DNA of 64,000 bases, from IMG/VR virus record IMGVR_UViG_3300025909_000005; one strand, written 5' to 3'. The notes beneath the pieces were generated by a model. It made no database searches and had not been told where the DNA came from. It saw only the letters and a program-made list of their open reading frames with translations. How positions within the stretch are numbered: position 1 is the first letter of the stretch; each line of letters starts with the position of its first letter. This document shows, piece after piece, positions 5,257-53,951 of the stretch. The DNA comes from a virus. Lineage: Duplodnaviria; Caudoviricetes. The translations under genes and the position numbers were made by a program.

Positions 5257-5601
5257 ATGAAAGTATCAGACCTTCTTGAAGACTGCGACTGCTCAAAGAG
5301 CGACAGCGCAAACCGCGATGACGAAAAGCTGGCGCTAGCCCGCAAGAAGACGAAGGACGAGATCGCAAAGATGCGTCAGTCCTATGCCGACAAGCGCCGT
5401 GCACGTTCCACCGAGCAGACGACTGAGGCCCTCGTTGGTGCAGATGGCAAGCTTGGCACTGGCGGTGGCAAGAAGACCGCACCAGCCCAATCGAAGAAGA
5501 CCATTGCCGCAAAGCGTGCAACCGGCGAGATCATGCCGAAGGGTCACTTCCACAAGAAAGGCGAGGACTGGGAGTCAACCAAGGTTACGAAGGCCAAATG
5601 A
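5257..5601 (+). CDS. Putative head-packaged internal protein (MKVSDLLE leader), very basic
   Basis: N-terminal motif shared with the dispersed family; Lys/Arg-rich body. Confidence 0.6.
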   Translation: MKVSDLLEDCDCSKSDSANRDDEKLALARKKTKDEIAKMRQSYADKRRARSTEQTTEALVGADGKLGTGGGKKTAPAQSKKTIAAKRATGEIMPKGHFHKKGEDWESTKVTKAK

Positions 5602-6761
5602 AAGTCTCTGAGCTTCTCGAGGGCTTGAAGGATATCGCCGCTGAGCTTGATGATGAGAAGCACTTCTCCATGGAGAAGATGCAGACATCAATCGAGAATG
5701 GTGTCGTTGTTCCCTTGTCGAAGCTTGACTTCCTTTCAAAGACTCAACTCGCAAAGATCGATGGGTGGATTCATGATAGCGACTGGGACCTCGGCCCATG
5801 GCTCGCTGCCGAAATCCTTGGTCTGAAGAACATGAACCAGTTGGAGCTCGTTGATAAACCATCTGACAGCTCCTACACCAGTTCTTCCTTCGACAACTTC
5901 TCTAGAGCAAGCGGCCTCCCAACTCACGATGAGACCTGGGACGCACTCATGGACTCGTTCAAGGTCACTCAGGGCGAGACTGAGGGCGGCAAGCTCTTTC
6001 ACGTTACCACACAGGTCGGCACTGCTACGCCATTGAAGGGCAAGTCGCAGAGAGTTGTTCTCACGAAGGAGAACGGCAATGTGTGGTTTGCTTGGGCAAA
6101 GAAGCCAAAGGTCAATGAGGCGCTGAAGGACCTCGCCTCGCTGGCAGATCAGCTCAGCGCGCTCGAGATCATCGCCGCTGGTGTGAAGGACCGCTTCAAG
6201 GAGCAGGCCGATTACATGAAGCAGTTCTTCCCTGGAGAAGATCCAAAGGACCATGCTGAAATGGTCCTTGCCAAGATCAAGGAATACAACGGTGAGAAGG
6301 TCCTCATCCTGAAGCCTGATCCTGAGTGGCAAGAATGGGGTCGCGGTAGTGCAAAGTGGTGCAGCAACCGTGTGCAAGCAGTAGCCCGTGAGAACAACAT
6401 CAAGGTGCGCTCACAGATGAACCCATACAATCGTCATGAGGTTGACGTCACGCTGATGTCATCTGGTGCCTCTGTCTCTCCTGAGAAGTTCGACTCCATC
6501 TTCAAGAACGTCGAGAGTGACATCCACGACAGCACCGTCGAAAAGGCGACAGCCCACCTTGACTCTGGCAAGTCGATGACCATCACGTGGGACCAGAAGC
6601 CGAAGAACAAGCGTTACGCCCACTTCTGGGAATCGAATGCTCGCAGCCTGTCCACCTCATACCGTGGTCTGGCTGCCAAGGCCGGCTTCCGGATCAAAGC
6701 AACTATCGACAAGCAAGCGAAGACCCTGACGATCACACCTGCTGACCAAGGTCGCGAGTAA
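5598..6761 (+). CDS. Putative head-packaged two-module polyprotein (MKVSELLE|GLKD... KVNE|ALKDL)
   Basis: Family leader plus an internal VNE|ALKDL repeat at aa 172-179. Confidence 0.65.
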   Translation: MKVSELLEGLKDIAAELDDEKHFSMEKMQTSIENGVVVPLSKLDFLSKTQLAKIDGWIHDSDWDLGPWLAAEILGLKNMNQLELVDKPSDSSYTSSSFDNFSRASGLPTHDETWDALMDSFKVTQGETEGGKLFHVTTQVGTATPLKGKSQRVVLTKENGNVWFAWAKKPKVNEALKDLASLADQLSALEIIAAGVKDRFKEQADYMKQFFPGEDPKDHAEMVLAKIKEYNGEKVLILKPDPEWQEWGRGSAKWCSNRVQAVARENNIKVRSQMNPYNRHEVDVTLMSSGASVSPEKFDSIFKNVESDIHDSTVEKATAHLDSGKSMTITWDQKPKNKRYAHFWESNARSLSTSYRGLAAKAGFRIKATIDKQAKTLTITPADQGRE

Positions 6762-6784
6762 CCAGACTTCAGGACATGTCCTTG

Positions 6785-6802
6785 ACACGTGAGTGTTACA
6801 AT
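6785..6802 (+). promoter_or_regulatory. Extended -10 promoter with ACAC-N4-GTGT palindrome (leaderless candidate for primase)
   Basis: ACACGTGAGTGT-TACAAT, 5 nt before ATG 6808; no SD. Confidence 0.6.
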
Positions 6803-6807
6803 GGTAC

Positions 6808-7815
6808 ATGCTCAAGCAAAAGACACTTGAAGACCTCATTCGTGAGAAAGTATTCCTAGGAGGCGTTAGCGGCTCCGGTTGGTACTACCTCAACTGCCCG
6901 CTCTGCGGGGACTCACGGCTGCGTGGGGGCTTCAAGTTCGACGGTGACAACACGGGCTACTCCTGCTGGAACTGCAGCGCAAAGTTCAAGTACGAGGAGG
7001 GTTCAGGCAAGCTCTCGAAGAACGCGAAGGAGATCCTTGAGGCATGTGGAGTTTCTCGTGAGGACCTGCAGGAGCTGACCTCACCGATCTTCTTGAAGAA
7101 GGCCGAGGAACCGACGATCACGATCGACAACTTGACGAAGGTCAAGACTCACACGCCTGAGGTTGCCTTCCCAGATCGCAGTCACCCCCTGCTCTCCTCA
7201 GTTCAAGAGGACATGCAGGCACCAATCCTTGAGTACCTCCTTGCACGACAGATCGACCCACTCAAGACGACGTTCTACTTCAGCCTCGACCCGAAGTTCC
7301 TACGTCGAGTCATCATCCCCTACTGGCGTGATGGCAAGCTCATCTACTGGCAGGCCCGAACGATCGATGAAGGTGTGAAGCCGCGCTACAGAAACTGCGA
7401 GATTGCCAAAGATGCAGTCATCTACGGTTACGACAAGCTGTTCACGCACGAGAACTCTCCGCTGTTCGTGACCGAAGGCGTCTTCAACGCGATCATGGTC
7501 GATGGCATCTCCGTGATGGGTGCCACGCTGAACGCATCGAAGATCGAGCTACTGAAGAAGACGAAGCGGCGCCTGATCTTCGTTCGTGACCGTGACTCTC
7601 AAGGAGACGTCCTCTCGAAGCAGGCGCTTGAGAACGGGTGGGAAATCACCACCGTGGACAAGCGAGTGAATGACATCAACGAATCAGTAACCACATTTGG
7701 GTTGCCCTACACCGCGTACAGCCTCATATCCAACGCGCAGCGACCATCTGACAAGTTACAATCTTCTGTTAGCCTGGATATTTGGGGCCTGGAAGACCGA
7801 CTGAGAAAGCGATAA
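6808..7815 (+). CDS. gp61: DNA primase (gp61-like, TOPRIM)
   Basis: Zn finger CPLC...CWNC, EGVFN and DRD TOPRIM motifs; lies next to the helicase. Start chosen at ATG 6808. Confidence 0.88.
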   Translation: MLKQKTLEDLIREKVFLGGVSGSGWYYLNCPLCGDSRLRGGFKFDGDNTGYSCWNCSAKFKYEEGSGKLSKNAKEILEACGVSREDLQELTSPIFLKKAEEPTITIDNLTKVKTHTPEVAFPDRSHPLLSSVQEDMQAPILEYLLARQIDPLKTTFYFSLDPKFLRRVIIPYWRDGKLIYWQARTIDEGVKPRYRNCEIAKDAVIYGYDKLFTHENSPLFVTEGVFNAIMVDGISVMGATLNASKIELLKKTKRRLIFVRDRDSQGDVLSKQALENGWEITTVDKRVNDINESVTTFGLPYTAYSLISNAQRPSDKLQSSVSLDIWGLEDRLRKR

Positions 7816-9593: not shown

Positions 9594-10013
9594 ATGAAAC
9601 TCAAAGATCTCCACGAAGCCAGCATCCTTGGCCGAATCTCCAAGGACTACGACGCAGATGACGCACTCGTCTACCTGCTCTTCCTTGCCACCTCAGACAT
9701 CGGTGATGTTCGGCGTCAAGTTGATCAGAATGAAGACCTGCCAGAGAGCAAGCGCGTCATCGACGGTTCGATCTACGCAGTCTACGAGAAGTTCATTCCG
9801 TACAAGCTGCACAGCATGACGGAGCACCAGAAGGAAGAGCTCTACGACAAGATCTGCCAGGACGAGATTCCATCTCAAACTTCTGACGAGTCTGTCGATG
9901 TGCTGCTTGACCTGGATGGAGACGTCTCAGCGGTCTACACGAACTATGACAAGCGCGAGAAGTTCCCGCACAAGGTTCTGACCATTGAGCTTGACGAGGG
10001 CTACTCAGCATGA
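9594..10013 (+). CDS. Putative head-packaged protein (MKLKDLHE|A leader)
   Basis: Start re-assigned to ATG 9594; leader variant of the family. Confidence 0.6.
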   Translation: MKLKDLHEASILGRISKDYDADDALVYLLFLATSDIGDVRRQVDQNEDLPESKRVIDGSIYAVYEKFIPYKLHSMTEHQKEELYDKICQDEIPSQTSDESVDVLLDLDGDVSAVYTNYDKREKFPHKVLTIELDEGYSA

Positions 10014-15284: not shown

Positions 15285-15644
15285 GTGAAGATCTCTGAGC
15301 TTCTCGAAGCCAATCTTGACAAGCTCAAGGCGCATGCTGATGATCCGAAGAACCACCCGGTTTTCTCGGATCATGTGAGCAAGCGCGTTCAAGACATGGA
15401 GCAAGATGAAGCTTATGAGGCGGCCGAGGAAATCATTCGCCGACTTGCTAAGAAGGCGGGAGCTTCCTATGCTTCTGTGTCTTCCTACTGGCTCGGCGGC
15501 GGGATGCCAGGTGACGACTACGCACAGTACATGGAAAAGCAAGACATTCATCTTGAAGATGGCTGGGACTACAACAAGGAAAAGCTAAACAAGATGGGCA
15601 TGTCAAAGCAGGACTACATGATTCTTCTGAAGGCATCCGAGTAA
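15285..15644 (+). CDS. Putative head-packaged protein (MKISELLE|A leader)
   Basis: GTG start at 15285 with AAGGA SD; family leader. Confidence 0.65.
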   Translation: MKISELLEANLDKLKAHADDPKNHPVFSDHVSKRVQDMEQDEAYEAAEEIIRRLAKKAGASYASVSSYWLGGGMPGDDYAQYMEKQDIHLEDGWDYNKEKLNKMGMSKQDYMILLKASE

Positions 15645-20640: not shown

Positions 20641-20844
20641 ATGCCAACAGTACAGCCACTCTTCGGAGTGAACAGCCAGGCAGAGATCGACGTTGACTCT
20701 CTGACCTCAATGGATGCCATCGAGTTCGCCGCGCAAGCTGCGTCCGCTGGCCTGTACGTGCGCTTCTTCGCCAAGGACGATAACCTCTGGGCAATCGTCG
20801 TTGGCCCCTTCGATGAACTGTCCGACTTCCTGACAACGCTATGA
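20641..20844 (+). CDS. Hypothetical protein
   Basis: 67 aa; first gene of the coupled island. Confidence 0.7.
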   Translation: MPTVQPLFGVNSQAEIDVDSLTSMDAIEFAAQAASAGLYVRFFAKDDNLWAIVVGPFDELSDFLTTL

Positions 20845-21209
20845 AACTCCTCGAACTGCTCGACGCGCTCCATGCGGTTGCAAACGAGCAAGGCAACATC
20901 GACACGTTCCACGACGATGCCGAGTGGGGTATCGGATCGCTGAGCTTCAAGCTCGGAAAGATCATCGATCGCCCGAACGGCTCGATGACGTACAAGTCCC
21001 TGGTCTCTCAGGAGGACTACGAGTTCGCACTCGAAACGCTGGCAAACAAGCTGACGGCAGAGGAACTCGGGAAGATGTGGGATGAGTCGCCGGAAGCTGA
21101 GCGCTTTATGTCGCGTGAAGAGCTCATCAAGAACAACCTCCAGTTCCAGGCTGAGCAGGCAGATGTAGTGAAGCAGTACGAAGCTGCTCCTTGGTCGGTG
21201 GTGTTCTGA
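20841..21209 (+). CDS. Hypothetical protein
   Basis: 122 aa, ATGA overlap. Confidence 0.75.
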   Translation: MKLLELLDALHAVANEQGNIDTFHDDAEWGIGSLSFKLGKIIDRPNGSMTYKSLVSQEDYEFALETLANKLTAEELGKMWDESPEAERFMSREELIKNNLQFQAEQADVVKQYEAAPWSVVF

Positions 21210-21478
21210 TGAAACTATGGAAGCAAACCTGGCGGATCGTCAAGCTCTCCACGAAGGAGTACTTCGGCCCCATCTTCTGGTTCACGGCATGGGCGCTGTG
21301 GCTTCGCGGCCACGTCGAGTACCTCATGACGCGTTGCGTACCAGATTCCTGGACGTGGCTCGGTGAGACGATGGCCGAGGCCTACCTCGAGTCGATGCAC
21401 GATTCACAGGCCTTGCAGGAATGGGCCTGCAAGGACCTCGACGTGATTTTTCCAAAACTCTGGCCCTGGGGATTCTGA
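21209..21478 (+). CDS. Trp-rich hypothetical protein
   Basis: TGATG overlap; start re-assigned to 21209. Confidence 0.65.
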   Translation: MKLWKQTWRIVKLSTKEYFGPIFWFTAWALWLRGHVEYLMTRCVPDSWTWLGETMAEAYLESMHDSQALQEWACKDLDVIFPKLWPWGF

Positions 21479-21666
21479 TGGAAGACGCACAAATGATGGG
21501 AGCTGTCACGATCATCGTGGCCCTCCTTGGTCTCCTGATCGGTGGCTGTGTCGGTGTTCACCTCGAACACGGCTTCTCACCTGACTGCTGGTGGGGAGCA
21601 CTGATCGGCGCAGGCTGCGTGCTTGGCGTCTGCGGCGTCGACGCAGTCGGTGATGTGGACTGGTGA
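21478..21666 (+). CDS. Small two-helix membrane protein
   Basis: TGATG overlap; two Gly-rich hydrophobic segments. Confidence 0.65.
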   Translation: MEDAQMMGAVTIIVALLGLLIGGCVGVHLEHGFSPDCWWGALIGAGCVLGVCGVDAVGDVDW

Positions 21667-22788: not shown

Positions 22789-22789
22789 C

Positions 22790-38892: not shown

Positions 38893-39226
38893 TCTTTGCT
38901 AGTTTCGCGAGCACGTCATTGTGCTTCTGGATGGCGCGCTCCACAACCTTCAGGTCGTCCTCAAGCTTCATGGCGCGAAGCGTGTTCTTGGTGGTGTCCT
39001 TCTTTGCAAGCAGGGCCAGCTCTGACTTGATGGCCTTCTGGCGGGTCAGCAGAGGAGCAAGCGCCTTGTTCTCGCGATTGGTTACCTTGGCCGCGTGCGT
39101 TGCACGGAACCGGACCTCATCGTCCTTCATGACCTTGTAGCTGTGGCCAAGAGCCGCAGCGCCGAGCACGGTTGCTGCGAGAGTGCTGGCAAACTTGCCT
39201 TCTTCCAGGAGTTCGTTAACTTTCAT
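38882..39226 (-). CDS. Putative head-packaged protein (MKVNELLEE|G) with a hydrophobic segment
   Basis: Family leader followed by STLAATVLGAAALG. Confidence 0.6.
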   Translation of the reverse strand: MKVNELLEEGKFASTLAATVLGAAALGHSYKVMKDDEVRFRATHAAKVTNRENKALAPLLTRQKAIKSELALLAKKDTTKNTLRAMKLEDDLKVVERAIQKHNDVLAKLAKNDK

Positions 39227-45200: not shown

Positions 45201-47773
45201 TAGATGCCATCCGAACGTAGGATCTGGAGTGAGGTGAGGTTGCCCAGAATCGACTGGCGGAACTCATCGCTGTCCACAACCAGCGGCGACTCATGACCGT
45301 CATGGTGGACAAGCACAAGCTGGTTCAAGACGCCATCGAGACGGATCGTCGGCTGCACGAGGTCGAGAATGCCAAGCTGTGGCAGCGTGGCTGGGAAGCC
45401 CACGACCGAGGCAGTCGAGTCGTAGAGAACCGTTCGAACGTCATTGTCAGCAGCACGCACCGACTCCACGTACGCGAGCAGGGCGTCAAGGTCGTTGATG
45501 TCCGTCACTGGACCGTTGTTGGCCATGTACTGGACGATGTGCTGCTGGTAGATGTCACGGACCGTGTTCAGCGCGACCTCGTACTGACGTTCGGCAAGGT
45601 CGATCATCGAGATCGGGGTCATGTCACGCTGCATCAGCAGGGAGGCGAGCAGGGTCTGCTGCTCAGACCAGAGCTTGATCGAACCACCGAACGCGAGGTT
45701 CAGCTGGCTGTTTGGAAGCTGGTTCTGGAGGATGCCGCGGAAGTGGGAGTACAGCGTGCCTTCCAGGAGAGGAGACTGGGACTCGTTGTATGGGTTGTTG
45801 TAGAACGTGCGCGGAACCTGCCATGCACCGACGCTGTTCGTGTCAGCTTCTGGACCACCGTAGAAGTCCACGATGTTGTTGTCAGCATCGCGGAAGACGT
45901 AGCGTGGCGATTCAAGGTTGCCGACGGCGATCAGGAACGTGTCGCCTGGCGTGAATGGAATCGAGCCTGCGTTGATCGTGAACGAGATGTAGCCGTTGTT
46001 GAATGGTACGCCAACTGTAGCGATGTCGGGAACGTCAGGCATCTTAGAGCCCTGCATGCTGAACGTCGTTGACGTCTGTGCAGTGAGGGTCCAGATCTGC
46101 TGCTGTGAGAAGTTGATCGCGGCAGCGTTCGTGATCGTGCCGTTGCCAGCTCCACCGTAGTAGATCCCAGCAATCGTCGGAGAATTGTAGCCAGCGTGCC
46201 AGATCGTCTTGAGCTGGTTGCCTGCCTTGACAAACAGGAGCTGGCCATTGGCATCAGCCATGCCGTGATTGAACACGAAGTCAGCAGAGTCGTTGTTCGA
46301 CTGGAGTGGACGCTTCTGCAGGTCGATGTCAAGGGTTGCAGTTGGGTCTTCCTCGTAGAAGAAGACCGAGCTCACGAGACCAGAGTGGGTGCCATCGTAG
46401 CGGAAGAGGTCAAACATCGGAAGCTGGTTGAATTCCGTCTTGACTTGCTTGAACGCAGCACCACTGTCCGAAGGACGGCCGTTTTTGACGAAGCCATTCA
46501 ACTGCAGGTCAGAGGTGTACTCGATGATTGGACGGACGGCCTGGATGGTCGTCGAGCGGCTCAGGCCAAGACCAGCGAGGTCGTCGCCATGGACCCAGTA
46601 GTTGCCTTCCTGCCAGGAGTTCGTGTTAGAAAGGGATGGCACGCCTGTCCAGCCCGTACCACCGAAGGCAGAGGTGAAGAGCATGCCACCGTTTTGGGTA
46701 CCAGAGGTCACGTAGACTCGAGCGCCATCGGCGATGTAGGAACCAGTGTAGTCAGCGGCTCGGGCCCAGACGCCAGGTGCCACGACGTAGATGCCCGTGT
46801 CGGCTGGATTGCCGTCCTTCACGAGAACACGGTCACCAAGCTGGAGCTGCACACCGTCGATCGTCTGGTACTCGTTTAGCGACGAGACCTTGTAGAGCTT
46901 GCCCTTGACACCCTCAGTGCCGACGAACGACACGATGTAGTTGTGGGACAGGAAGGTCGGTGTAACCGTGAAGTAGTCGCCAGCGTCGAACGAGGCGGTG
47001 CCGATGACGTCACCGTTGTAGTTGATGATCGGTTCACGGGCAATGTTGAACGTGAGCAGGGTCTTGCCGCTAGACGCGAATGAGAACTGGTCGTCGTTTG
47101 TCGTGAGGTCACCGCTCCAGGTATCTGGAATGACGCCAGCTGGCTGGGGCGTAACCGTGAAGTGGGTAGGTGTGGTGAACAGCACCTTGAACGACATGGC
47201 TGGGAAGCCCGTGCCGGTCATGACAATCGAGCCCGTCGTGGCCACACGGGCGTTCAGCTTGTTCTGGTCGCCTGGACGTGGTGTCGCAATCGTGTAATAC
47301 TCTGGCAGGAGCTCAGGGTTCCAAGGCATGTCAGGGGTTGCAGCAACCGCCTTGGCCGTCCAGTAGTAGTTGAAGAAGTTCGTGAACTTGTCGAAGTCGA
47401 TCGGTGGGGCGAAGTTGTTGCCCTGCGAGTAAAGCCACTGCTGACCTGCGTCAGTGATGCCGATAGCCTCAGCCTTGCGCACGAGATCCTCAACGGTGAA
47501 GGCGAACTTCTCGGTACCGAGGGTGAACGAGATGACAGGGACGATCGAGTTGATGTCGCGCTCAACGTTCATCTGCGGGACGCGTGGCGAACGATCATCC
47601 TTGCTGGTTGGCTTGACACCAACGTAGCCGTAGAGCGGCACGCTCTCGTCATGAGTCATCTGCCGATTGAACAGGTTGTCGATCAGCGAGGTGATGACCT
47701 CGTCCCTCAGGTTCAGAGGAACGTAGTTGATGAGGTCATTGAAGGGAAGTTTGAAGTCTGGTGCTTGAGCCAT
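39230..47773 (-). CDS. Giant baseplate wedge-like structural protein
   Basis: 2847-aa ORF downstream of the gp6-like gene; contains GD[RL]VL fibre-type domains and PxxGDxW repeats. Confidence 0.75.
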   Translation of the reverse strand: MAQAPDFKLPFNDLINYVPLNLRDEVITSLIDNLFNRQMTHDESVPLYGYVGVKPTSKDDRSPRVPQMNVERDINSIVPVISFTLGTEKFAFTVEDLVRKAEAIGITDAGQQWLYSQGNNFAPPIDFDKFTNFFNYYWTAKAVAATPDMPWNPELLPEYYTIATPRPGDQNKLNARVATTGSIVMTGTGFPAMSFKVLFTTPTHFTVTPQPAGVIPDTWSGDLTTNDDQFSFASSGKTLLTFNIAREPIINYNGDVIGTASFDAGDYFTVTPTFLSHNYIVSFVGTEGVKGKLYKVSSLNEYQTIDGVQLQLGDRVLVKDGNPADTGIYVVAPGVWARAADYTGSYIADGARVYVTSGTQNGGMLFTSAFGGTGWTGVPSLSNTNSWQEGNYWVHGDDLAGLGLSRSTTIQAVRPIIEYTSDLQLNGFVKNGRPSDSGAAFKQVKTEFNQLPMFDLFRYDGTHSGLVSSVFFYEEDPTATLDIDLQKRPLQSNNDSADFVFNHGMADANGQLLFVKAGNQLKTIWHAGYNSPTIAGIYYGGAGNGTITNAAAINFSQQQIWTLTAQTSTTFSMQGSKMPDVPDIATVGVPFNNGYISFTINAGSIPFTPGDTFLIAVGNLESPRYVFRDADNNIVDFYGGPEADTNSVGAWQVPRTFYNNPYNESQSPLLEGTLYSHFRGILQNQLPNSQLNLAFGGSIKLWSEQQTLLASLLMQRDMTPISMIDLAERQYEVALNTVRDIYQQHIVQYMANNGPVTDINDLDALLAYVESVRAADNDVRTVLYDSTASVVGFPATLPQLGILDLVQPTIRLDGVLNQLVLVHHDGHESPLVVDSDEFRQSILGNLTSLQILRSDGIYTGAVGSFTNTPPALPYKGQLWIPPGDIMYAYNVVSDKNAPTSPAVGDYWLQRSTATLFTWTGTTWSTVSNINAPWVATNLADVLNSLMLRVEEKLFDGINPNARKFDFSQLEGNAAFQAEVEAELFSFGATNGLDPLAPDYNAGNAFTWNYSQLTSPVPINTSSTPARWFNYLMAHQATVAGVIPTPRPDMEPWKLFGFADHDSWWSSLSSGTQAAYTPYIRLDQIDATYITGPTVRVVKTDAGITMLSGLPVIDGVQLVSGDLVLLQNEMSPENNGIWAANSGGWTRNLTPLVEKLVVTVSSGALWKGSKWVLTATAGPTDPVIFKQARIWSSQLWADVQAAHPSLKLSVDVANDGLLPPYVRPSSGNAGNALTNFIPIGASLGYSYGQSSPIETTWKTSLEYGYSLARALFRFDPLAFLGFCWGFNWVEADGILYDGFDMNMPGHKRFRLHGDAISLISRSTMPVTGTDSIVATYTAYDDDHKQNFTVTQNGVTIGYAQNGVAATLGGVTFTIEDEGQPFRMGDRFEISNGVATFVPITTYRYLGFGQTFTHALREVSIDTTSSFAVAAFREWDVNMGYRAGGLVATDDLEIFTDSYTLSKSAYELIFKKNPIARNEWLQGLRISVTQFGQTSAGPDGTFVPPTDGSDWIFRVEGYNPRHLGITYYSMSTATDPVDFYALGKAHTSLAWLHPTVKTGTVHTNLPLTITGIQNVVNFLFGYEAYLEDQGWEFNKMGDYNIDDETGRTRTFQLEIEKFVDRCYAGITLGQGHVVNSFMDRVWFGQETGLMSEFVDSPLFDVSGHPGIFDVLGVKYKKDDLKVLRGNQESSVGAAGPIFSAHVQVDEFEHVFIFADYAQPSTSSGLLYDAFSGSRVVTYKFHGRKQATNTLRPEFGGHFLVGNEVKQNMQASADNFGNFYDANKAFENETTSRHALALLGFNTKSYFDNLDISEKTQFNFWRGLIQSKGTNMSIDAYLNNDRFDDAKIDEYWAYKVAQYGDARQKSFPELKLSVNDTVTQFTQLQFDNDTLAPAFTTIRNYDENRWFSYDDLNQPSTGFAAEVVGTFAAVGPGTITLPFIADQLTYPAGVTVNNATTVTIDSSATFPALIVGYGPARPRFNPVKLFNYVDEELVAEIPIWHPATGQHTPAALECINITSNLNPAKYNFSTQVVNNNSYDPLRPWGANEVGRVWFDTRNLAYVPYYDYVIYPEIADRLSRWGALADYASIDVYEWVESTVPPSEYNALAATQAGDASLDPNTKAAGTVANQQTYQRERVWSLRPVAWSYSPVPLNIDFEETPPFNGGHTLEAAGRLWFDDSGTTVSLGASDFATIGITSGMRIGAWNVFNAIPKPMSEYIVGDVFSKVLVDQNGGTFADVTNVGIASNISVAVSNTNLLTGQLAFYPTYDQAPILDADGVTTSYYTTVGIKAQLEDGSTDFATTTTSTDLTTTPAQVTYTAGEKILVELPAFGILITVTIAADGTYNVTDLRDAIVNGLAANLYARNSVTIQAVVPNPAGVTSPLSNDSADPGTFYGWRAWTVPTQAELDADGTYPTSSWKPYVGDYVEIPGSLVQVQDAIAYSKAPLTLNDGTIVDRYSTTWTDWSVLLDKKRTYPKLDDDISYTVVADGAGCTFTNDVNFDSTSTSVYINGVAQLKASYTISGKLLTVNSVPAGSQVVVITRKYQPTVAELAFDPDVKDNLAVQTQYKQDYEYVSLPVRDADGTFSSTLYYFWVSNKSTAARGKALSVQSIVQELRDGPDNFLTFQNMDPVTHVYDAITIAGLSYVVTKDDTFKLRFTRNFTLRDDPEEWNLKNVHTEWTLIRPGQKTLIPEALWQKLTDSVAGRDIAGNSVPAIARSLYDERNGTRTQFGFGPEQTLAPQDLLISSITYTILNTSLVDTSGASPVPDYISFLDFDQSDTWFADPVAARNMMTKIWTQAKVAQVNEIFFAALNDIVASNYELTDLFKTSRLSAYSIKVVQSGTAAATYE
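39517..39522 (-). promoter_or_regulatory. Intragenic late-promoter core (CTAAATAC)
   Basis: CTA AAT codons about 290 nt upstream of the MKVNELLE gene. Confidence 0.4.
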
Positions 47774-47798
47774 GTCAATCGCTGATCAGAGGATCAGG

Positions 47799-47805
47799 TA
47801 TTTAT
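47799..47805 (-). promoter_or_regulatory. Late promoter ATAAATA
   Basis: Intergenic, upstream of 47773. Confidence 0.75.
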
Positions 47806-47835
47806 GACCTAGCAGGTTTCCCCTCGGGGTGACTT

Positions 47836-49059
47836 TCAGGACTTGACTGGCTCGAAGTTCGCAAGGAACTTCGCATCGCCGACCTCAAACTTGGCGCCCT
47901 TAGTTGTCGCCTTCTTATCGAAGTAGGTGAACGGCTCATCGAATGTAAAGCCAATCCAATAAGAGCTTAGCGAGGATGTTGGGTCGACGTACTTGATCGT
48001 CACGACCTTGCCAATGGCGTTCTCTTTTTCCGTCTTGAAGCCAAGCATGTCATCCACAGGATGGTGTAGGAACACGTCACCTGTGATCTTCCACTTCTGA
48101 CCTACCTTTGGCGCCTCGTCCTTTAGCTTCGAGAGAACGCCCTCAGTAACTGGCTTTGCCTGGCCTCTCATCCACTTTGCGCCATCTTCTTCAAGGTACT
48201 CACCAAGTTTCTCAAGGTTTTCCAGAGAGCCAGTGAACGTTACAAGAGGGTAGCCGTGTTTGTCCCTGCTCGTGTGGTCTACATGAGCTTCGAGATTGTA
48301 CTCACGGGCCAGGCGATTGACGGTCTTTTCGATTCTATCGTGGTCATATCGACCGTAATCTTCTGGTCGTTGATTCGTCTGGAAGTTGAATGGGCTGAAG
48401 TTTCTAGTTTCGAACTTCCACTTGACAACCTTGTCGTAATCCTTCTTAAGGTCCTTTAGACCTTCCTTCACCTTGTTGGCCCGCTTGGCGTGCTTCCTGA
48501 AGTAGCGCTTTGCTGCCTGGGAATCCTCATCATAGTAGACGTACTCAAGTACGTCGATCAGAGCATTGTAGGTTCCCATCAACGTGAAGACGTTGCCGTT
48601 TCGATGAATGGACCGAGCACCCCAGATCTTGAACTCCTCTTCGATGTCATTGAGGTCGTAGGACGTGAAGTCAATGTCCATGAGCCACAGGTCATCATCT
48701 GAGTCGAAGTCCTTGGCCAAGTCCTTGAGCGCTTCCTGCACCTTCTTTTTCTTGACGCGCTTTGCGCCAGACTTGAAGTTGTACTCAGCTTGCCAAGCGC
48801 GTTCACCATCATCCACTACGTGGAGGAGTACGTCCATCAACCGTTCCTTGGTTCCCTCAAGCTCGTACCTGTAGCCATTGTGAGACAGCACAACGACGCC
48901 GCGCTTCTCAATCGCCTTCACGAACTTATCTTCGTTGGCCTTGTGCTTCTCGTCGTCAGCCGTGCGATCGTCATTGATGACAGCGATTCGCCACTTGTCG
49001 GCGTCATCGTAGTCCTTGGCCATGTCCTTCAGACCTTCAAGAAGTTCGGCAACTTTCAT
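47836..49059 (-). CDS. Putative four-module head-packaged polyprotein
   Basis: LLE|GLKDMAKDYD, VQE|ALKDLAKDFD, VKE|GLKDLKKDYD and VTE|GVLSKLKD junctions. Confidence 0.75.
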   Translation of the reverse strand: MKVAELLEGLKDMAKDYDDADKWRIAVINDDRTADDEKHKANEDKFVKAIEKRGVVVLSHNGYRYELEGTKERLMDVLLHVVDDGERAWQAEYNFKSGAKRVKKKKVQEALKDLAKDFDSDDDLWLMDIDFTSYDLNDIEEEFKIWGARSIHRNGNVFTLMGTYNALIDVLEYVYYDEDSQAAKRYFRKHAKRANKVKEGLKDLKKDYDKVVKWKFETRNFSPFNFQTNQRPEDYGRYDHDRIEKTVNRLAREYNLEAHVDHTSRDKHGYPLVTFTGSLENLEKLGEYLEEDGAKWMRGQAKPVTEGVLSKLKDEAPKVGQKWKITGDVFLHHPVDDMLGFKTEKENAIGKVVTIKYVDPTSSLSSYWIGFTFDEPFTYFDKKATTKGAKFEVGDAKFLANFEPVKS

Positions 49060-49394
49060 TTGATCAGCTGCTTGTCTGAGGTTACAGGCTTGGCGAATTC
49101 GTCAAAGAACTCCTTGTCTTCACCCCAGTGACGTTCGACCATGTCTAGCAGACGATAGTCCTTACCAACGAAGTGAACAAGCGGATTGCCGCCGCCCGGC
49201 CCAACGAGCTCAATCACCTTGGCCTTCACGCCACAGTCATTTGCAATGATGTCAGCGTCATGCTGCGCTACGCTCATGCTCGAGTTGTCGCTGTTCGCCA
49301 GGTCAAGGTCGATGTACCAAAGATCTCCGTACTTCCTGGCTTCGCTCTCAAGATCCTTGAGCTTACCTTCGAGGAACTGCTTGAACGTGATCAT
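49056..49394 (-). CDS. Putative head-packaged protein (MITFKQFLE|GKLKDL), paralogue of the polyprotein modules
   Basis: Leader close to the T4 IP MKTFKEF/MKTYQEFIAE; GNPLVHFVG matches GYPLVTFTG of module 3. Confidence 0.7.
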   Translation of the reverse strand: MITFKQFLEGKLKDLESEARKYGDLWYIDLDLANSDNSSMSVAQHDADIIANDCGVKAKVIELVGPGGGNPLVHFVGKDYRLLDMVERHWGEDKEFFDEFAKPVTSDKQLIK

Positions 49395-52300
49395 TTGGAT
49401 TGCCTGATGACGGTTGAAGTGAGTGCCTCGACGACGTCGATGTCAGAGATCTCTGCAGCAGATTGGAGGATCTCGTCAAAGCCGGCCTCTACGGTGAAGA
49501 GAGAACCGAACGAGTTCGTGGAGTAGACAGGGACTGGCACGACTGCAGCGACGTCTTCAGGCAGGCGCTGGTGAATCAGGGCGATGAGCTTCGTGGCGTA
49601 GAACGTGTCGCCGAAGTCCCAGTTGTCGATGTCGAAGAACGTGTTGATGACGTCGAGAACCTCTTCCTTGATGCGCTCGTCGGTCAGAGTGCCAGTCAGG
49701 GACTTCACAACCTTGAACTTGGCGCGCAGCTGTGGCTCGGCCAGACCACCAAAGAGTAGGCGGATCTTGCCAGAGTGCATGACGACCGTGTCAGAGAGCA
49801 TCTTCTTGCGAAGCAGATCGCCATAGGAGTTGCGCAGCTCGAGCGGAGTTGGAGGTGTCGGTGCGTAGACAGATGTGCCACGGACGTAGTCGATCACGTT
49901 GTTGTAGTAGCCTGAGGTCAGAACGTACGCGTCGTGAATGTTGGTTGGCGTTGGGTCGATGATGTTCGTGAACGGCGTGAAGTGCTGCCACATGAAGTCG
50001 AGACCCGTGTTGCCGCTGTCTAGAGCTGGCATGCGCTGTCGACGACCATAGACGAGTGAGTCATCAACGAAGGCGCCTGCACCCCATGTCATGCCAGCGG
50101 CGGTTGAAGCTGCAATGCCCGTCAGAGTGACAGTCGGGTTCGAGATGAGGAAGTACTCGTAGGACGGTTCAGTGCCACCCGAGAACGTCTCGTACTGCAG
50201 GAGGCGGTCAGGAACGAGGTCACCTGAGTCGTCTTCCTTGAGCAGGTCAGATGGAACGATCTGGAGCTGGTGAACGTCAAGCACACCGTCAGAGTCCTTG
50301 ACAGGACCGACGACGTCGTAGATCTGGTTCTTCTTCAGCTGAATGCCAGCTGAGTTGAAGTTCGAGCCAAGGATCTTGATGTTGTCGTAGACGACGTCCT
50401 TCGTCTCATTGTCTAGAAGCTGATCAACCGTGTTGAACCAGAAGTTCGTGTCCTCAGAACGGATCGTGAGTGCAACCTCGCGGTTGTGAACCTCGTAGCC
50501 GATGATCGTGGAGTTCTGGCGGAGCTTTCGGATGAAGATCACCCAGCTGTAGCGACGAACGGAAGGTGTGAACTTCTGGTCGTGGTACAGGGAGGAGTCA
50601 GGACCGTTGGCGAACTCAGACGTCAGGTCAGCTGCTGAGATGATTTCCCACCAGCCGTTGAGGTTGACGATGTTGTTTGGGTTGCCGTCCGAGAACAGGC
50701 GCTGCGTGACCGAACCATCTGAGTTCGTGTCAAGAATGAACGCGTCACCAGGCTGGAGTGGGTTGGTCGTTGAGGACGTGACGGTGAAGAACTCCTTAGA
50801 GCTCGTCTCACCTGGCAGCAGGATGCTGTACACGTCACCAATGGCACCAGTCGGAAATGAACCACGAAGGTTCGAGCGGACGTAGAGGGAGCCTCCATCT
50901 GCAGCGACCTCGATGGTCCAGACTTCTGCGACCGAGGTCGAGGTTGCTGGGATCGAGCTCGTGAAGCCTGAGACAGGAGTGATCGTGCCGGTACCAATGC
51001 CAGCGAAGTAGCGGTTGTAGCGGAGCGCGAAGTAGTCTTGGTCAGCGATTGGCTGGAGACCCGAGCCGATGTCGCCTGGTGGGAAGCGGTTCACGCCGTC
51101 GATCGTACGTGGCACCGTGGCCGCGTAGATCTTGGAGTCGTCCTTCGGGTTCAGGTCAGGATCCGGAATCTGAGCAAGAACTGTGCCGTCAGCGGCTTGG
51201 ACGTACTGCAGTGGCTCACCGTACCAGTGGCGGTCGATCAGGCCCTGAATGGACGTCTTCTCCTTGAGAGAGCCGTCGCCGATCAAGGTGCCAGTCGCGT
51301 CAGAGTAGATGCCGCCGCGGTTGTCCTCAATGAACTTGCGACGAGGAGCCGACACAACGCCCTGCATTCCAGGCGTGGTGGCCGAGGAGTGGAGCAGCGT
51401 ATTGATGACGCCAGAGGTGCTGAGCAGTGGCTCAATGACTGAGTCGATGAGGGCCTGGCCAGAGACAGAGGTCGTCTGGCTAGACAGAGAAAGCTGGTAC
51501 CGCATCGTGGCATCGTCACCGAAGAGCTTGACGTTCTCGTAGGTTCCAGAGGCGTCGTTCCAGTCGATGTACTTCGGCTGACCTGCAAAGGTGCGGTTGA
51601 TCGTGTTCAGGCGGAGGATCGATGGGTCCTCAAGCAGCAGCGTGTTGTAGTCCTGTCCGTTGACCATGCGGTCTTGGACGTAGAAGCTGCCAGGCATCGA
51701 CTGACGAATATGCTCGATCGTTTCAGTTGCCGAGCCATTCTGCAGGGTCGTCGTCAGGCTGAACGTCATCGAGCAGGACTCGGTGTTGTTCAGCGTGGAG
51801 GTGTACGAGAAGTTGAACGGTACGTTCTGAACCTTGTTCTTCTGGACAACGATCGAGCGGTTCGCCGACTGACGCATCCAGAACCGGAACAGGCCCTGAG
51901 GAATGTCCGAGAAGTCACCGTCACCGAAGATCAAAGTGATCTTGTCATTCTCACCCGTGTCAACTTCAAACTTCTTACGCGTGTTGCGGATCGAGTTGAA
52001 GACGAGGTTCTCAGAGAGCGTGTCAACCTGTGTCCAGCGTTCCGAGATGTTGGAGTTCGAGTCAAGCTTCTGAACCCAGATGTCCGTGTGGTTGACGTTC
52101 GTTGGGTCGAAGTCGAGGCGACGGTCAGGCAGAGCGTCAGCGATGTTGTAGTCGATGCGTGTCAGGGCACCCTGCTTCACGAAGCCAAGGAAGCCGGTGT
52201 AGTCAGAGCCATCACCGATACCGTCGTTCGCGTAGATGATCGAGAGCGGGGAGGTCAGGTCTGGTTCACGCTCGAACGGACCGTTCGAGTCGATATCAGC

Positions 52301-52936
52301 GGGCACGACCTCCATTGGGTAGGAGTCTTGACCGGCCTGAGCCGTGAATGGGAAGACGCCGTTCGTGAAGGAGCCAGAAGTGTTGCGCAGACCGTAGAGG
52401 TCCATGACAACGTCACCAATCTGGAAGGTCTTGGAGGGTTGACCGAAGCGGGTGTTCAGGACGCGGTTCATCACGAGGATGAACTGCTCCTTCCAGTTCG
52501 AGTTGTTCGGGTCGTTCCACTTGATTGTCAGACCAGCCAGGTCGGTGCCACGTGAGTCGACGACGCGTTCGGTGGTCGAGACGGTGTTGAACTTGATCAG
52601 GCCACGAACAGGAATGTTGCGGGTTGGCTTGTACGAGACGAGCTTGGCAAGGCGGAGGATCGACTGCTTACGCTGAGCAGTGGTCACGAAGTTCTCGTGA
52701 GCCATCATGTCGACGCGATAGGCCAGCTGCTCAGCGACGTAGGCGAACGACTCGATCAGGGCAATGAACTCGGACGACTCGATGTAGTCGTTGAAGACCT
52801 CTGGGTAGTAGGTCTTGGTGTAGTCGATCAGCGACTGCTTGATGCTGTCAAAGTCATATGAGACGAAGCTGACCTCGCTGAAGGCCTGGTAGATTCGATC
52901 CCAGGTCTCGGCCGAGTAAGTGGTACGGAGTGCCAT
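49391..52936 (-). CDS. gp6: Baseplate wedge protein (T4 gp6-like)
   Basis: YDFDSIKQSL...AYRVD..AHENF..TAQRKQSILRLAKLVSYKP N-terminal signature; VNGQDY. Confidence 0.88.
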   Translation of the reverse strand: MALRTTYSAETWDRIYQAFSEVSFVSYDFDSIKQSLIDYTKTYYPEVFNDYIESSEFIALIESFAYVAEQLAYRVDMMAHENFVTTAQRKQSILRLAKLVSYKPTRNIPVRGLIKFNTVSTTERVVDSRGTDLAGLTIKWNDPNNSNWKEQFILVMNRVLNTRFGQPSKTFQIGDVVMDLYGLRNTSGSFTNGVFPFTAQAGQDSYPMEVVPADIDSNGPFEREPDLTSPLSIIYANDGIGDGSDYTGFLGFVKQGALTRIDYNIADALPDRRLDFDPTNVNHTDIWVQKLDSNSNISERWTQVDTLSENLVFNSIRNTRKKFEVDTGENDKITLIFGDGDFSDIPQGLFRFWMRQSANRSIVVQKNKVQNVPFNFSYTSTLNNTESCSMTFSLTTTLQNGSATETIEHIRQSMPGSFYVQDRMVNGQDYNTLLLEDPSILRLNTINRTFAGQPKYIDWNDASGTYENVKLFGDDATMRYQLSLSSQTTSVSGQALIDSVIEPLLSTSGVINTLLHSSATTPGMQGVVSAPRRKFIEDNRGGIYSDATGTLIGDGSLKEKTSIQGLIDRHWYGEPLQYVQAADGTVLAQIPDPDLNPKDDSKIYAATVPRTIDGVNRFPPGDIGSGLQPIADQDYFALRYNRYFAGIGTGTITPVSGFTSSIPATSTSVAEVWTIEVAADGGSLYVRSNLRGSFPTGAIGDVYSILLPGETSSKEFFTVTSSTTNPLQPGDAFILDTNSDGSVTQRLFSDGNPNNIVNLNGWWEIISAADLTSEFANGPDSSLYHDQKFTPSVRRYSWVIFIRKLRQNSTIIGYEVHNREVALTIRSEDTNFWFNTVDQLLDNETKDVVYDNIKILGSNFNSAGIQLKKNQIYDVVGPVKDSDGVLDVHQLQIVPSDLLKEDDSGDLVPDRLLQYETFSGGTEPSYEYFLISNPTVTLTGIAASTAAGMTWGAGAFVDDSLVYGRRQRMPALDSGNTGLDFMWQHFTPFTNIIDPTPTNIHDAYVLTSGYYNNVIDYVRGTSVYAPTPPTPLELRNSYGDLLRKKMLSDTVVMHSGKIRLLFGGLAEPQLRAKFKVVKSLTGTLTDERIKEEVLDVINTFFDIDNWDFGDTFYATKLIALIHQRLPEDVAAVVPVPVYSTNSFGSLFTVEAGFDEILQSAAEISDIDVVEALTSTVIRQSK

Positions 52937-52961
52937 TGCTGTCCTGTTCTAGGTGTACGTC

Positions 52962-52967
52962 TATTTA
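52962..52967 (-). promoter_or_regulatory. Late-promoter core TAAATA (stop codon + ATA)
   Basis: 25 nt upstream of the gp6-like start. Confidence 0.55.
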
Positions 52968-53207
52968 CAGCGACACGAATTCGCCATCGGTTAGGTATCC
53001 GTGCCAGCCACAGCAGCGCTGAAGCAGCGAAGGCGTCAGAGTTGGCTTCTCTTCGTTACCGTTCCAGGTCCAGCCGTCATTGAACTCCTTGTCGATTGGA
53101 ACGTAGGAGTCGTCCCCACAGCCAGGACAGTCAAAGGCCACGCCACCAGGCCGGCCATCAGGATACTTCCGAATGGCCCATCCGTTTGGTCGCGGTTCCT
53201 TCCTCAT
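52965..53207 (-). CDS. Small Cys/His protein (DUF6527-like)
   Basis: CPGC...WNGNEEKPTLTPSLL..CCGWHGYLTDG pattern. Confidence 0.6.
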   Translation of the reverse strand: MRKEPRPNGWAIRKYPDGRPGGVAFDCPGCGDDSYVPIDKEFNDGWTWNGNEEKPTLTPSLLQRCCGWHGYLTDGEFVSL

Positions 53208-53560
53208 GCAGTGGCGAACTCGAGGCGCAGGGTGTCCACGATTCCCAGTTCGATGTAGCGAAGGTCAAGAACAGCCACGATGGCGTTGTTCTCAGGAAGG
53301 GCCATGACAGCGATGTCAATAAGCTGAACGCGAGGGTCGTAGTCGACGACCTCCCGCAGGTCTGACTCAACGTCCTTTAGTGTGAGCTGGTCCAGAGGTT
53401 CAAAGGCGATCAGTGGGATGCGCGTGCCAAAGCCAGGCATCATGACGCGCTCGCCCTTGAGAGTGTAGATGTGGTTTAGGAGGTCTCGGTTGATGAGCTC
53501 TGCGCCCTTCATGCCGAAGCCTTTCTTCGCCTTGGTGGAGAAGCCGAGGTACTTACTCAT
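53204..53560 (-). CDS. gp25: Baseplate wedge subunit (gp25-like)
   Basis: DLLNHIYTLKGERVMMPGFGTRI...FEP...YDPRV; start re-assigned to ATG 53560. Confidence 0.9.
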   Translation of the reverse strand: MSKYLGFSTKAKKGFGMKGAELINRDLLNHIYTLKGERVMMPGFGTRIPLIAFEPLDQLTLKDVESDLREVVDYDPRVQLIDIAVMALPENNAIVAVLDLRYIELGIVDTLRLEFATA

Positions 53561-53951
53561 CAAGTTCCCTAATATTGATGCGAACACGATTGGTGGACTC
53601 TGGTTTGCCTGTGTCGAAGTTGAAGGGGTTCCAAGAAGCAAACTCATGTAGGCCCAAGTTCGTTGACTTTGCCTCAATAGTCTTGCATAGCTTCGTCATG
53701 TTCCTGGCAACTTCCAGGTCATGTGCTCGATTTTGATCGTCATCCTCGATCGGGCCCGGCGAGGGGTCCCACTCAGGCACCTTCAGCGTCAAGTAGGAGT
53801 AACCGTCCTTATCGGGCTTTGTCAGCCCGAGGAACTTGTAACCAGGACCGAAGTTCAGTCTCTTAAGGAGGTCGTTGAAGATCGGAAGCTTCGTCTTCGG
53901 TATTGAAGCCTTGAGCTTTGCCAGGTCCTCAAGAAGTTCGGTGACTTTCAT
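53553..53951 (-). CDS. Putative head-packaged protein (MKVTELLE|D)
   Basis: Family leader; inserted between the gp5-like and gp25-like genes with overlaps at both ends. Confidence 0.62.
   Translation of the reverse strand: MKVTELLEDLAKLKASIPKTKLPIFNDLLKRLNFGPGYKFLGLTKPDKDGYSYLTLKVPEWDPSPGPIEDDDQNRAHDLEVARNMTKLCKTIEAKSTNLGLHEFASWNPFNFDTGKPESTNRVRINIRELDE

Follow-up and report, generated by a model that had tools for sequence, protein, structure and literature searches.

Nine genes dispersed over a 64,000-nucleotide stretch of phage DNA (the window) begin with closely similar peptides, and the question is what purpose a common N-terminus serves on proteins whose bodies are largely dissimilar. 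The window is part of an uncultured jumbo myovirus of approximately 376 kb carrying T4 core genes, whose closest cultured relative is the Ralstonia phage RsoM2USA. A first-pass annotation of the window had likened the peptide to the capsid-targeting leader of T4 and proposed that foreign domains acquire it as an address tag upon insertion into late operons.

A common peptide at ORF starts

All nine leaders were confirmed by translation and read as first annotated, with the gene at 15285 starting at GTG and the ATG at 9594 being internal to an ORF that opens with GTG at 9558. Eight of the nine conform to M-K-[VIL]-x-[ED]-L-[LH]-E, while the remaining leader (49394) reads MITFKQFLE and represents a second tag type. 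Residues 6 to 8 are L-L-E or L-H-E in the eight genes and F-L-E in 49394, and the next residue is G, A, D or E. The tag thus ends in the recognition motif of gp21, which cleaves after L/I-X-E (PMC9026906).

The motif was confined to ORF starts. A six-frame search of the window with K.{1,3}[ED]LLE returned seven matches, every one at residue 2 of an ORF, and the pattern suggested in the first-pass annotation as a check on enrichment (M[KI].{1,3}[ED][LF][LH]E) returned eight, again all at starts. When a looser 7-mer was searched in six frames across the window and 1.26 Mb of related loci, 54 of 92 matches stood immediately 3' of a start codon in an ORF of at least 40 aa. PA5oct, a T4-core jumbo phage of 287 kb used as a negative control, gave 95 six-frame matches, none of them at an ORF start.

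Comparison with T4 (NC_000866) revealed a likeness to experimentally defined propeptides, namely those of IPII/III (MKTYQEFIAE), IPI (MKTFKEF), Alt (MELITELFDE) and gp24 (MAKINELLRE). MITFKQFLE, together with the MKTFKQFL found in RsoM2USA and the related genome G001, is a near-copy of the IPI and IPIII N-termini. The main tag is best matched by the gp24 and Alt propeptides, both removed by gp21, through the core ..x-E-L-[LF]-x-E, although in T4 an additional residue precedes Glu-Leu and gp24 is a shell protein rather than cargo. Regexes derived from the clade, when applied to the ORF starts of 43 kb of T4, recovered only IPI-III, Alt, alt.-1 (a truncated copy of Alt), gp24 and one antisense TTG ORF. 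Like the tag described here, the capsid-targeting sequence (CTS) of the T4 internal proteins is short, sits at the very N-terminus of small proteins that are otherwise unrelated, and terminates in the hydrophobic-x-Glu motif cut by gp21. In IPIII the first 10 residues are enough to target the protein, and the CTS is possibly a general route by which T4-like phages load varied proteins (PMC9026906). The two systems differ in that nine or ten tagged genes lie within 64 kb here versus three internal proteins in T4, in that the main tag is shorter (eight residues, MK[VIL]xELLE), in that some cargo is multi-module with internal tag-derived junctions, and in that packaging and cleavage are predicted here.

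We consider it likely that the common N-terminus is a T4-type capsid-targeting and processing tag, a head propeptide with a maturation-protease site, placed on variable cargo. By analogy with T4, a protein bearing such a tag would have an affinity for the prohead's scaffolding core during assembly and would be enclosed as the shell forms. A gp21-like Peptidase_S77 protease would then cut after hydrophobic-x-Glu (LLE↓G/A/D, the arrow marking the predicted cut), and the freed body would remain in the head, probably to be ejected with the DNA. We infer that packaging, cleavage and ejection occur in the window phage.

Synonymous differences between the leaders had been taken as evidence that selection acts on the peptide. 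Between genomes this view stands, as the peptide is conserved across a range of 41-57% GC whilst its codons vary. Within the window genome it is weakened, the leader codons being both variable and strongly biased, and unusually uniform in their use of AAA, CTT and GAA: Lys2 is AAA in seven of eight leaders versus 4% in gene bodies, and CTT and GAA are over-used. It could be argued from this bias that conservation lies at the level of nucleic acid, with an AT-rich unstructured 5' stretch (ATG AAA ... CTT CTT GAA) favouring initiation or reinitiation at ATGA-coupled starts, of which there are five, or supplying micro-homology for cassette exchange, and the peptide arising as a by-product. A preference for AAA at codon 2 is seen in G001 too. 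We nonetheless hold this explanation to be very improbable, since the related genome G002 uses AAG, the Leu and Glu codons vary freely in G001, G002 and RsoM2USA with the residues kept, the second tag type differs in DNA but shares the hydrophobic-x-Glu ending, and untagged genes with Lys2 mostly use AAG. The uniform codons are also consistent with recent copying within the genome or with selection acting at the 5' end of the mRNA.

Tagged genes and their slots

The window is collinear with positions 42.9-100.4 kb of G001. Homologues in three relatives (G001, G002 and RsoM2USA) were absent for 10 of 10 tagged genes, compared with 11 of 48 other ORFs (Fisher p = 7e-6). The tagged genes are also more AT-rich than their neighbours, as had been judged by eye for several of them (GC 0.523 versus 0.560 in 46 other ORFs; Mann-Whitney p = 4e-4). 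Together, the lower GC and the absence of homologues suggest that the cargo domains may be foreign, as had been proposed.

Four tagged genes on the + strand sit among primase, DnaB helicase and exonuclease genes, and for these the earlier assignment to late operons does not hold. The first (5257-5601, 114 aa, MKVSDLLE↓D) encodes a basic body (pI 9.8) of low complexity without a match in Pfam or PHROG or a homologue in the three relatives, and the equivalent slot of G001 is occupied by four other tagged genes. It is followed by a two-module gene (5598-6761, 387 aa, MKVSELLE↓GLKD). The third (9594-10013, 139 aa, MKLKDLHE↓A) is the weakest member of the set; a ATAAATAG motif stands 5 nt 5' of its ATG, and no homologue was found in the relatives. 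The fourth (15285-15644, 119 aa, (M)KISELLE↓A) has AAGGA at about -10 of its GTG and starts 1 nt past the stop of an 823-aa gene. A possible tenth member (20841-21209, 122 aa, MKLLELLD) belongs to a + strand island whose ORFs lack homologues in the relatives. The location of the four genes in the replication block is weak counter-evidence to head packaging because ipI-III and alt of T4 also lie outside the late operons, scattered away from the head operon.

On the - strand, the proposed insertion into conserved blocks was borne out by synteny at three sites. The gene at 25290-25679 (129 aa, MKLDELLE↓GLKDLSKDYD) separates the spanin genes (25676-26574) from a peptidase/endolysin gene (23703-25289), and these flanking genes are directly adjacent to each other in G001. 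Likewise adjacent in G001 are the genes for the 2847-aa (giant) and 1323-aa virion proteins, between which lies the gene at 38882-39226 (114 aa, MKVNELLE↓E), whose basic body (pI 10.0) includes a hydrophobic stretch of 16 residues. The gene at 53553-53951 (132 aa, MKVTELLE↓D) stands between gp5-like (53948-55048) and gp25-like (53204-53560) genes that abut in G001 and several IMG/VR relatives; an identical copy occurs on L069, another contig from this phage. The gp25-gp6 and gp6-giant slots were also variable across IMG/VR loci. Tight joins of the ATGA or abutting kind, as first described, were found at seven starts: a 4-nt overlap with the stop before it is seen at each of 5598, 25679, 49059, 49394 and 53951, and the starts at 15285 and 39226 fall 1-3 nt past a stop.

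Equivalent slots in the relatives hold tagged genes with different, unrelated bodies, so that variable genes occupy fixed positions in a collinear conserved backbone, as at the plastic loci of T4-like genomes. Despite gp6 identities of only 42-70% between the phages, the tag is kept and the bodies behind it are exchanged for others; T4 internal proteins similarly vary between related phages behind a retained tag. In the relatives, the tag stands ahead of the first strand in folds that are unrelated to each other, that of a Zeta-toxin-like P-loop kinase and that of a cytidylyltransferase, and in another instance it accompanies a weak ART-PolyVal match. Furthermore, both tag types alternate inside single paralogue families (phrog_11975 in G001; ORF88-90 and ORF274-283 in RsoM2USA). 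The tagged genes constitute the plastic part of the genome, confined to a few slots in the backbone and usually joined to a neighbour by an ATGA overlap, and their bodies are exchanged between related phages with retention of the tag.

Shared modules and internal junctions

The earlier description of the bodies as mostly unrelated applies to five or six of them, in which no similarity extends past residue ~10. The other four (5598, 25679, 49059 and 49394) have in common a module that starts LKDL..D[YF]D directly after the tag. Some of the tagged genes form a genuine family of paralogous modules. The four-module gene at 47836-49059 (- strand, 407 aa, MKVAELLE↓GLKDMAKDYD) encodes modules 1-3 that align with the product of its neighbour at 49056-49394 (- strand, 112 aa, MITFKQFLE↓GKLKDL), which consists of one copy of the repeated module and whose gene immediately follows that for the gp6-like wedge. 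An AlphaFold2 model of the latter (pLDDT 81) predicts an N-terminal helix at residues 4-22 and then a beta-alpha-beta-beta-alpha core; structural matches were restricted to uncharacterised small phage proteins. As the tag runs straight into the conserved LKDL..DYD helix in these four proteins, forming one continuous helix in the model, the likeness of their tags is in part ordinary paralogy.

This raises the possibility that the common N-terminus is throughout the opening helix of paralogues that have spread by duplication and diverged, with only the start still recognisable and no role in addressing. The shared module, the continuous helix, the closely similar leader codons within the window genome and the module gain and loss visible in two related proteins (P0002 and P0124) are in keeping with such descent. 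We consider it unlikely for the set as a whole, given the dissimilarity of the other bodies, the unrelated Pfam folds behind the same tag, the interchange of two tag types within one family, the persistence of the tag as bodies are replaced and its match to T4 propeptides of unrelated proteins.

The multi-module proteins contain degenerate copies of the tag at their internal junctions. The 47836-49059 product has three (the arrow here marking the junction), VQE↓ALKDL (E109, 48735-48733), VKE↓GLKDL (E199, 48465-48463) and VTE↓GVLSKLKD (E306, 48144-48142), and the 5598-6761 product has one, KVNE↓ALKDL (E174, nt 6117-6119). P0002, an 87%-identical variant of the former product, is without module 1 and carries a full tag at the position of the first junction. 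For the 5598-6761 product, a search of 1.84 billion representatives returned only itself and one 153-aa protein, which has the same tag and ends at residue 168. It is possible, if doubtful, that 47836-49059 and 5598-6761 encode capsid-packaged polyproteins formed when adjacent tagged genes fused in frame, in which the prohead protease would cut the degenerate-tag junctions (KV-x-E↓[AG]-LKDL) and release several small domains in the head; the tag codons might also serve as a cassette-exchange junction between slots or phages. Full tags exactly at the junction positions of the single-module relatives P0002 and P0124 fit this suggestion without proving it.

Head maturation and known loading systems

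The protease, scaffold and capsid genes lie outside the window. A Peptidase_S77 prohead protease is encoded in four related genomes (G001-G004) and in RsoM2USA, and adjoins scaffold and capsid genes on a 40.6-kb contig carrying the capsid protein P0017. P0017 is also present on a contig of 376,608 bp that, judging by its size and GC, is probably the window's own phage. On this basis the window phage probably encodes a gp21-type protease with T4-type scaffold and capsid. The tag ending recurs in the capsid protein itself: LLEG occurs within the first 30 residues of 115 of 120 clade capsid proteins (..KEALLEGL..), the major capsid protein of the clade having K-E-A-L-L-E-G-L near its N-terminus where T4 gp23 has PLLEGEGL.

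Evidence from virions comes from RsoM2USA, in which the only MKTFKQFL genes, ORF89 and ORF132, encode two of the ten virion proteins reported as abundant (PMC8504454), with calculated masses that agree with that report. These data comprise ten gel bands, and the tagged proteins among them are of the MKTFKQFL type only, whereas the MKVxELLE type dominates the window. The XacN1 virion enzymes named in PMC5852040 lack the tag, which is thus not required for virion presence in the wider group.

An address or interaction peptide could instead serve a partner other than the prohead, such as a phage chaperone, a host target, the baseplate or tail, or a degradation or secretion system. Several of the genes adjoin baseplate or tail genes (gp5-gp25 and gp6-giant), one lies inside the lysis cassette, four are among replication genes, and the cargo of relatives includes cytoplasmic-type enzymes. 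Gene position is no predictor of destination in T4 either, and the nearest matches in sequence are specifically to T4 head proteins that gp21 processes; with LLEGL in the capsid protein and tagged proteins abundant in RsoM2USA virions (PMC8504454), we judge a non-prohead partner improbable. The interpretation first proposed is partly supported, by the propeptide matches, the gp21 site, the protease of the relatives, slot exchange and the RsoM2USA virion proteins.

Other giant phages (phiKZ, 201phi2-1 and SPN3US) also load many head proteins, including paralogous families, which a gp21-related protease trims after Glu (PMC9026906, PMC10052503). They belong to a different lineage without the T4 core genome, and have an S/A-x-E cleavage motif and long propeptides rather than a common tag of 8-10 residues. 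A phiKZ/SPN3US inner-body type was ruled out, the tags here having an L/F-x-E ending and the backbone being that of a T4-core phage (Gp23-family capsid protein, gp5, gp25, gp6) rather than a chimallivirus-type head gene set. The effector-type domains behind the tag in relatives (Zeta-toxin-like kinase, weak ART-PolyVal match) recall the polyvalent proteins (Pfam ART-PolyVal, Zeta_toxin and others); those are single giant multidomain proteins, whereas here separate small genes each have their own tag. Domains of this type are typical of proteins delivered with DNA. T4 Alt is likewise an injected enzyme, resembling the enzyme cargo of relatives, and no Alt homologue was identified in the 64-kb window.

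These small genes, nine or ten in number and specific to the lineage, probably encode variable cargo of the virion. Loading on this principle has been published before for T4, and the gain lies in breadth rather than in a new mechanism. Should the tag mark proteins packaged in the head, a simple rule on sequence would identify the injected proteins of a large and for the most part uncultured clade of T4-core jumbo phages related to RsoM2USA and common in soil and rhizosphere metagenomes, and the slots would show how cargo is exchanged. Head-packaged proteins act ahead of any phage gene expression and are for that reason prime candidates for counter-defence and host takeover; in T4, IPI* blocks a restriction enzyme and Alt modifies RNA polymerase. 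The window cargo, being without known family, would provide a compact list of testable candidates.

Tagged genes and their genomic setting

The DNA is part of a jumbo myovirus possessing T4 core genes. Its gp6-like wedge protein (49391-52936) shares 42% identity with the counterpart in RsoM2USA, the nearest cultured relative, and approximately 40% with those of XacN1, PA5oct and Atu_ph07. When positions 47000-54000 were compared by megablast with 50,697 phage genomes, none proved nearly identical.

All nine tagged starts reported in the first-pass annotation exist and translate as written there. Translation of the window showed that eight of these genes begin with M-K-[VIL]-x-[ED]-L-[LH]-E and that the ninth, at 49394, reads MITFKQFLE. 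Gene 15285 uses a GTG start codon, and the ATG of gene 9594 is internal to an ORF opening at GTG 9558. A six-frame search of the 64 kb with K.{1,3}[ED]LLE returned seven matches, all of them at ORF residue 2; the pattern search proposed in the annotation, run on the window, returned eight, every one at an ORF start. A tenth candidate, MKLLELLD, was found at 20841. It resides in a plus-strand island (20641-23101) of about five ORFs between two minus-strand blocks, none of which has a homologue in three relatives (the phage genomes G001 and G002, and RsoM2USA).

According to PHROGs, genes 5257 and 5598 immediately precede those for primase and DnaB helicase, 9594 follows the helicase gene and 15285 precedes an exonuclease gene. 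Gene 25679 is located between the spanins and a peptidase/endolysin, 53951 between gp5-like and gp25-like genes, 49394 and 49059 between gp6 and a 2847-aa protein, and 39226 between the latter and a 1323-aa protein. Thus, the earlier description of insertion into late operons holds for the five genes in structural or lysis operons, but not for the four among replication genes. The tight stop-start joins claimed previously were recovered as 4-nt overlaps with the preceding stop at five tagged starts (ORF coordinates). Similarly, the impression that these genes are more AT-rich than their neighbours was borne out by calculation (GC 0.523 versus 0.560 for other genes, p=4e-4; GC3 0.648 versus 0.695).

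Other features of the window were also recorded. The sequence [CG]ATAAATA[GC] occurs in 11 copies, including those at 3655, 9191, 9582, 17040, 20614(-), 27728(-), 30608(-), 34917(-), 47805(-) and 59906(-); ATAAATAG alone accounts for 6 copies against 0.08 expected. The majority are located 5-70 nt ahead of a gene start, among them copies before the 2847-aa protein and tail-fibre-like genes. Given its likeness to the T4 late promoter TATAAATA, this motif may be the late promoter of the phage. Three consecutive tail-fibre-like proteins (27085-27687, 27791-30322 and 30627-32585, minus strand) possess a common C-terminal domain of approximately 60-120 aa (phrog_21918), and the 843-aa tail-fibre-like protein has further matches to families of head-decoration and Ig-like virion proteins. 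Two small neighbouring paralogues of 93 and 73 aa (26584-26865 and 26862-27083, minus strand) have ..SDTWT[VI].HNL..YP in common and are kept in all three relatives.

Retention of the tag and exchange of the body

A scan of IMG/VR with gp6 yielded 79 related loci, in which the slots between gp25 and gp6 and between gp6 and the giant protein hold zero to five genes. These begin MKLAQLFEA, MKVSELFEA, MKITELLAE, MKLNELFK, MISFKQFIAEGK and so on, with differing bodies. Across the window and 1.26 Mb of related loci, a loose 7-mer matched 92 times in six frames, and 54 of these matches directly followed the start codon of an ORF with 40 aa or more. In the window itself, the gp25-gp6 slot, where relatives have tagged genes, is instead occupied by an untagged 80-aa Cys-rich ORF (52965-53207, minus strand; CPGC ... 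CCGWHG) for which no homologue was found in G001, G002 or RsoM2USA.

Whole relatives were then compared: G001 (349,660 bp, 51% GC), G002 (342,591 bp, 57% GC, with terminal repeats) and RsoM2USA (41% GC). Both tag types were found at ORF starts in all three, and matches to the MKTFKQF-type pattern were at starts in 5 of 6 cases in G001 and in every case in RsoM2USA (2 of 2) and the window (1 of 1). PA5oct, a T4-core jumbo phage outside the subgroup, served as a negative control and gave 95 six-frame matches with none at a start; lacking such tags, it was ruled out as a test of the tag through its 93-protein virion proteome.

A tblastn of all window ORFs revealed collinearity with G001 at 42.9-100.4 kb. 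At a threshold of 1e-5, 10 of 10 tagged ORFs had no match in G001, G002 or RsoM2USA, compared with 11 of 48 other ORFs (Fisher p=7e-6). The synteny check bore out the claim of insertion into conserved blocks, since the genes flanking three tagged slots (spanin and lysin, giant and 1323-aa proteins, gp5 and gp25) directly adjoin in G001. Furthermore, the G001 slot ahead of primase holds four other tagged genes (MKVSDLFEG, MKLEQLFEAK, MKLQELFKSA and MKVAELFEAE). These comparisons show the tagged genes to be the plastic portion of a conserved backbone, in which the tag stays and the body is exchanged, because they are without homologues in the relatives and differently bodied tagged genes occupy the same slots. 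Our literature search brought up no description of these tags for the clade.

Codon usage in the leaders bears on whether the signal might act at the nucleic-acid level. Lys2 is AAA in seven of eight window leaders, although AAG supplies 96% of Lys codons elsewhere, and CTT and GAA are over-represented. Across relatives, however, the residues are constant and the codons free to vary: leader position 6 in G001 uses six different codons, and the Lys2 codon of G002 is AAG. Selection is thus on the peptide, as the first-pass annotation had proposed, and we regard a nucleic-acid signal as very improbable. The codon uniformity within the window suggests recent intragenomic copying, a 5'-end effect, or both.

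Likeness to T4 head proteins and presence in RsoM2USA virions

T4 N-termini were taken directly from record NC_000866 (↓, putative cleavage point). Those of the internal proteins are MKTYQEFIAE↓A (IPII and IPIII) and MKTFKEFTS (IPI); the others are MELITELFDE (Alt), MAKINELLRE↓S (gp24), MLKEQLIAE↓A (gp22) and MNEPQLLIE (the prohead protease gp21), and gp23 contains KAELLNKWKPLLEGEGL in its N-terminal region. Both the window MITFKQFLE and the MKTFKQFL of relatives almost reproduce the IPI/IPIII tag, and the nearest T4 likeness of MK[VIL]xELLE is to the gp24 and Alt propeptides. When clade-derived patterns were run on 43 kb of T4, the ORF-start matches were limited to IPI-III, Alt, alt.-1 (a truncated Alt copy), gp24 and one antisense TTG ORF. 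In T4, gp21 cleaves after L/I-X-E, the first ten IPIII residues are enough for head targeting, and the capsid-targeting sequence (CTS) is perhaps a general means of loading varied proteins in T4-like phages (PMC9026906); the T-even internal proteins are a diverse set with the CTS as their sole common feature (PMC3012670).

The clade possesses the corresponding head machinery. Peptidase_S77, the gp21 family, was found in G001-G004 and RsoM2USA. A clade major capsid protein, P0017, shares 89% identity with its G001 counterpart and is present on a 376,608-bp contig; the 407-aa tagged protein of the window (47836-49059, minus strand) is present on one of 376,619 bp. P0017 also occurs on a 40.6-kb contig with the gene order portal, acetyltransferase, Peptidase_S77, scaffold and Gp23-family capsid protein. 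We infer that this head module belongs to the window's own phage. In this part of the contig (genes 6241-6678 and 6715-7335), the acetyltransferase gene, of the GNAT type, lies between those for portal and prohead protease. The capsid protein N-terminus reads MTLIENWSETKEALLE↓GLSGSK, and 115 of 120 clade capsid proteins carry LLEG within the first 30 residues; LLE↓GL is thus conserved in the capsid protein as well as in the tag, its T4 gp23 counterpart being PLLEGEGL.

Ten abundant RsoM2USA virion proteins were identified by SDS-PAGE and LC-MS/MS, including ORF89 (28.57 kDa) and ORF132 (76.64 kDa) (PMC8504454). ORF89 and ORF132 are the only RsoM2USA genes to start with MKTFKQFL, and their calculated masses agree. 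The presence of both among 10 detected of 486 ORFs is unlikely by chance (~4e-4), a figure that concerns the second tag type only. The main type is reached indirectly, through families of paralogues within which the types alternate: phrog_11975 in G001, and ORF88-90 and ORF274-283 in RsoM2USA. The last is a tandem array of ten paralogues of ~200 aa (MG752970.1, 175363-181454), whose N-termini switch between MKLxEI.. or MRLTEI.. and MSFKQWLKE or MRFKKWLSE, representing both types. Two virion enzymes of XacN1 named in the text of its paper are without the tag, and the published MIJ3 proteomics lists four proteins.

We consider the best explanation, and a probable one, to be a tag of the T4 type, for capsid targeting and processing, on variable cargo. 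The cargo-loading idea first put forward is supported in part: the likeness to T4 tags and the tagged RsoM2USA virion proteins favour it, but late-operon placement fails for four genes. That the tag might address a partner other than the prohead is, in our estimate, improbable.

Cargo bodies and possible polyproteins

Neither Pfam nor PHROGs returned a significant match for any of the ten tagged window proteins, an ESM Atlas feature search gave no usable match, and the 407-aa protein gave none when compared by tblastn with 50,697 phage records; the window bodies are orphans. All-against-all BLASTP confined similarity almost entirely to the first ~20 residues. The earlier view of mostly unrelated bodies agrees with this, but needs qualifying for 5598, 25679, 49059 and 49394, which share an LKDL..D[YF]D stretch after the tag. 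The bodies of 5257 and 39226 are strongly basic, resembling T4 internal proteins, which are described as basic (PMC9026906).

A model of the module (pLDDT 81) begins with an N-terminal helix and continues into a beta-alpha-beta-beta-alpha core. Foldseek against the PDB found nothing significant, the hits being small alpha/beta folds of a generic kind (E>0.008), and matches in BFVD were limited to uncharacterised small phage proteins. The tagged bodies of relatives include unrelated folds, with the tag placed ahead of the first strand. These are a Zeta-toxin-like P-loop kinase (G001 342524), a cytidylyltransferase (IMG/VR locus L051:840), DUF6934 and, as a weak match, ART-PolyVal. Plain paralogy of an N-terminal helix would account for likeness at the start of these proteins; set beside such differing folds, we consider it unlikely.

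The 407-aa protein contains three to four repeats of a module present once in 49394. Apart from the protein itself, its homologue search retrieved a single variant, P0002 (87% identical), which is without module 1 and carries a full tag, MKVAELLEGLKDMAKSFD, where the 407-aa protein has the junction KKKKVQE↓ALKDLAKDFD. For the 387-aa protein (5598-6761, plus strand), the one sequence besides itself that a search of 1.84 billion representatives retrieved was a single-module protein of 153 aa. This relative bears the same tag and stops exactly at the onset of the second module (KVNE↓ALKDL). Since both relatives match the junction positions, the internal junctions appear to be degenerate tags. The long tagged proteins have the look of tagged genes fused in frame, and the 407-aa and 387-aa proteins are possible polyproteins.

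The mechanism itself is already known from T4. What is new is its membership and scale in an uncultured jumbo clade, together with possible polyproteins.
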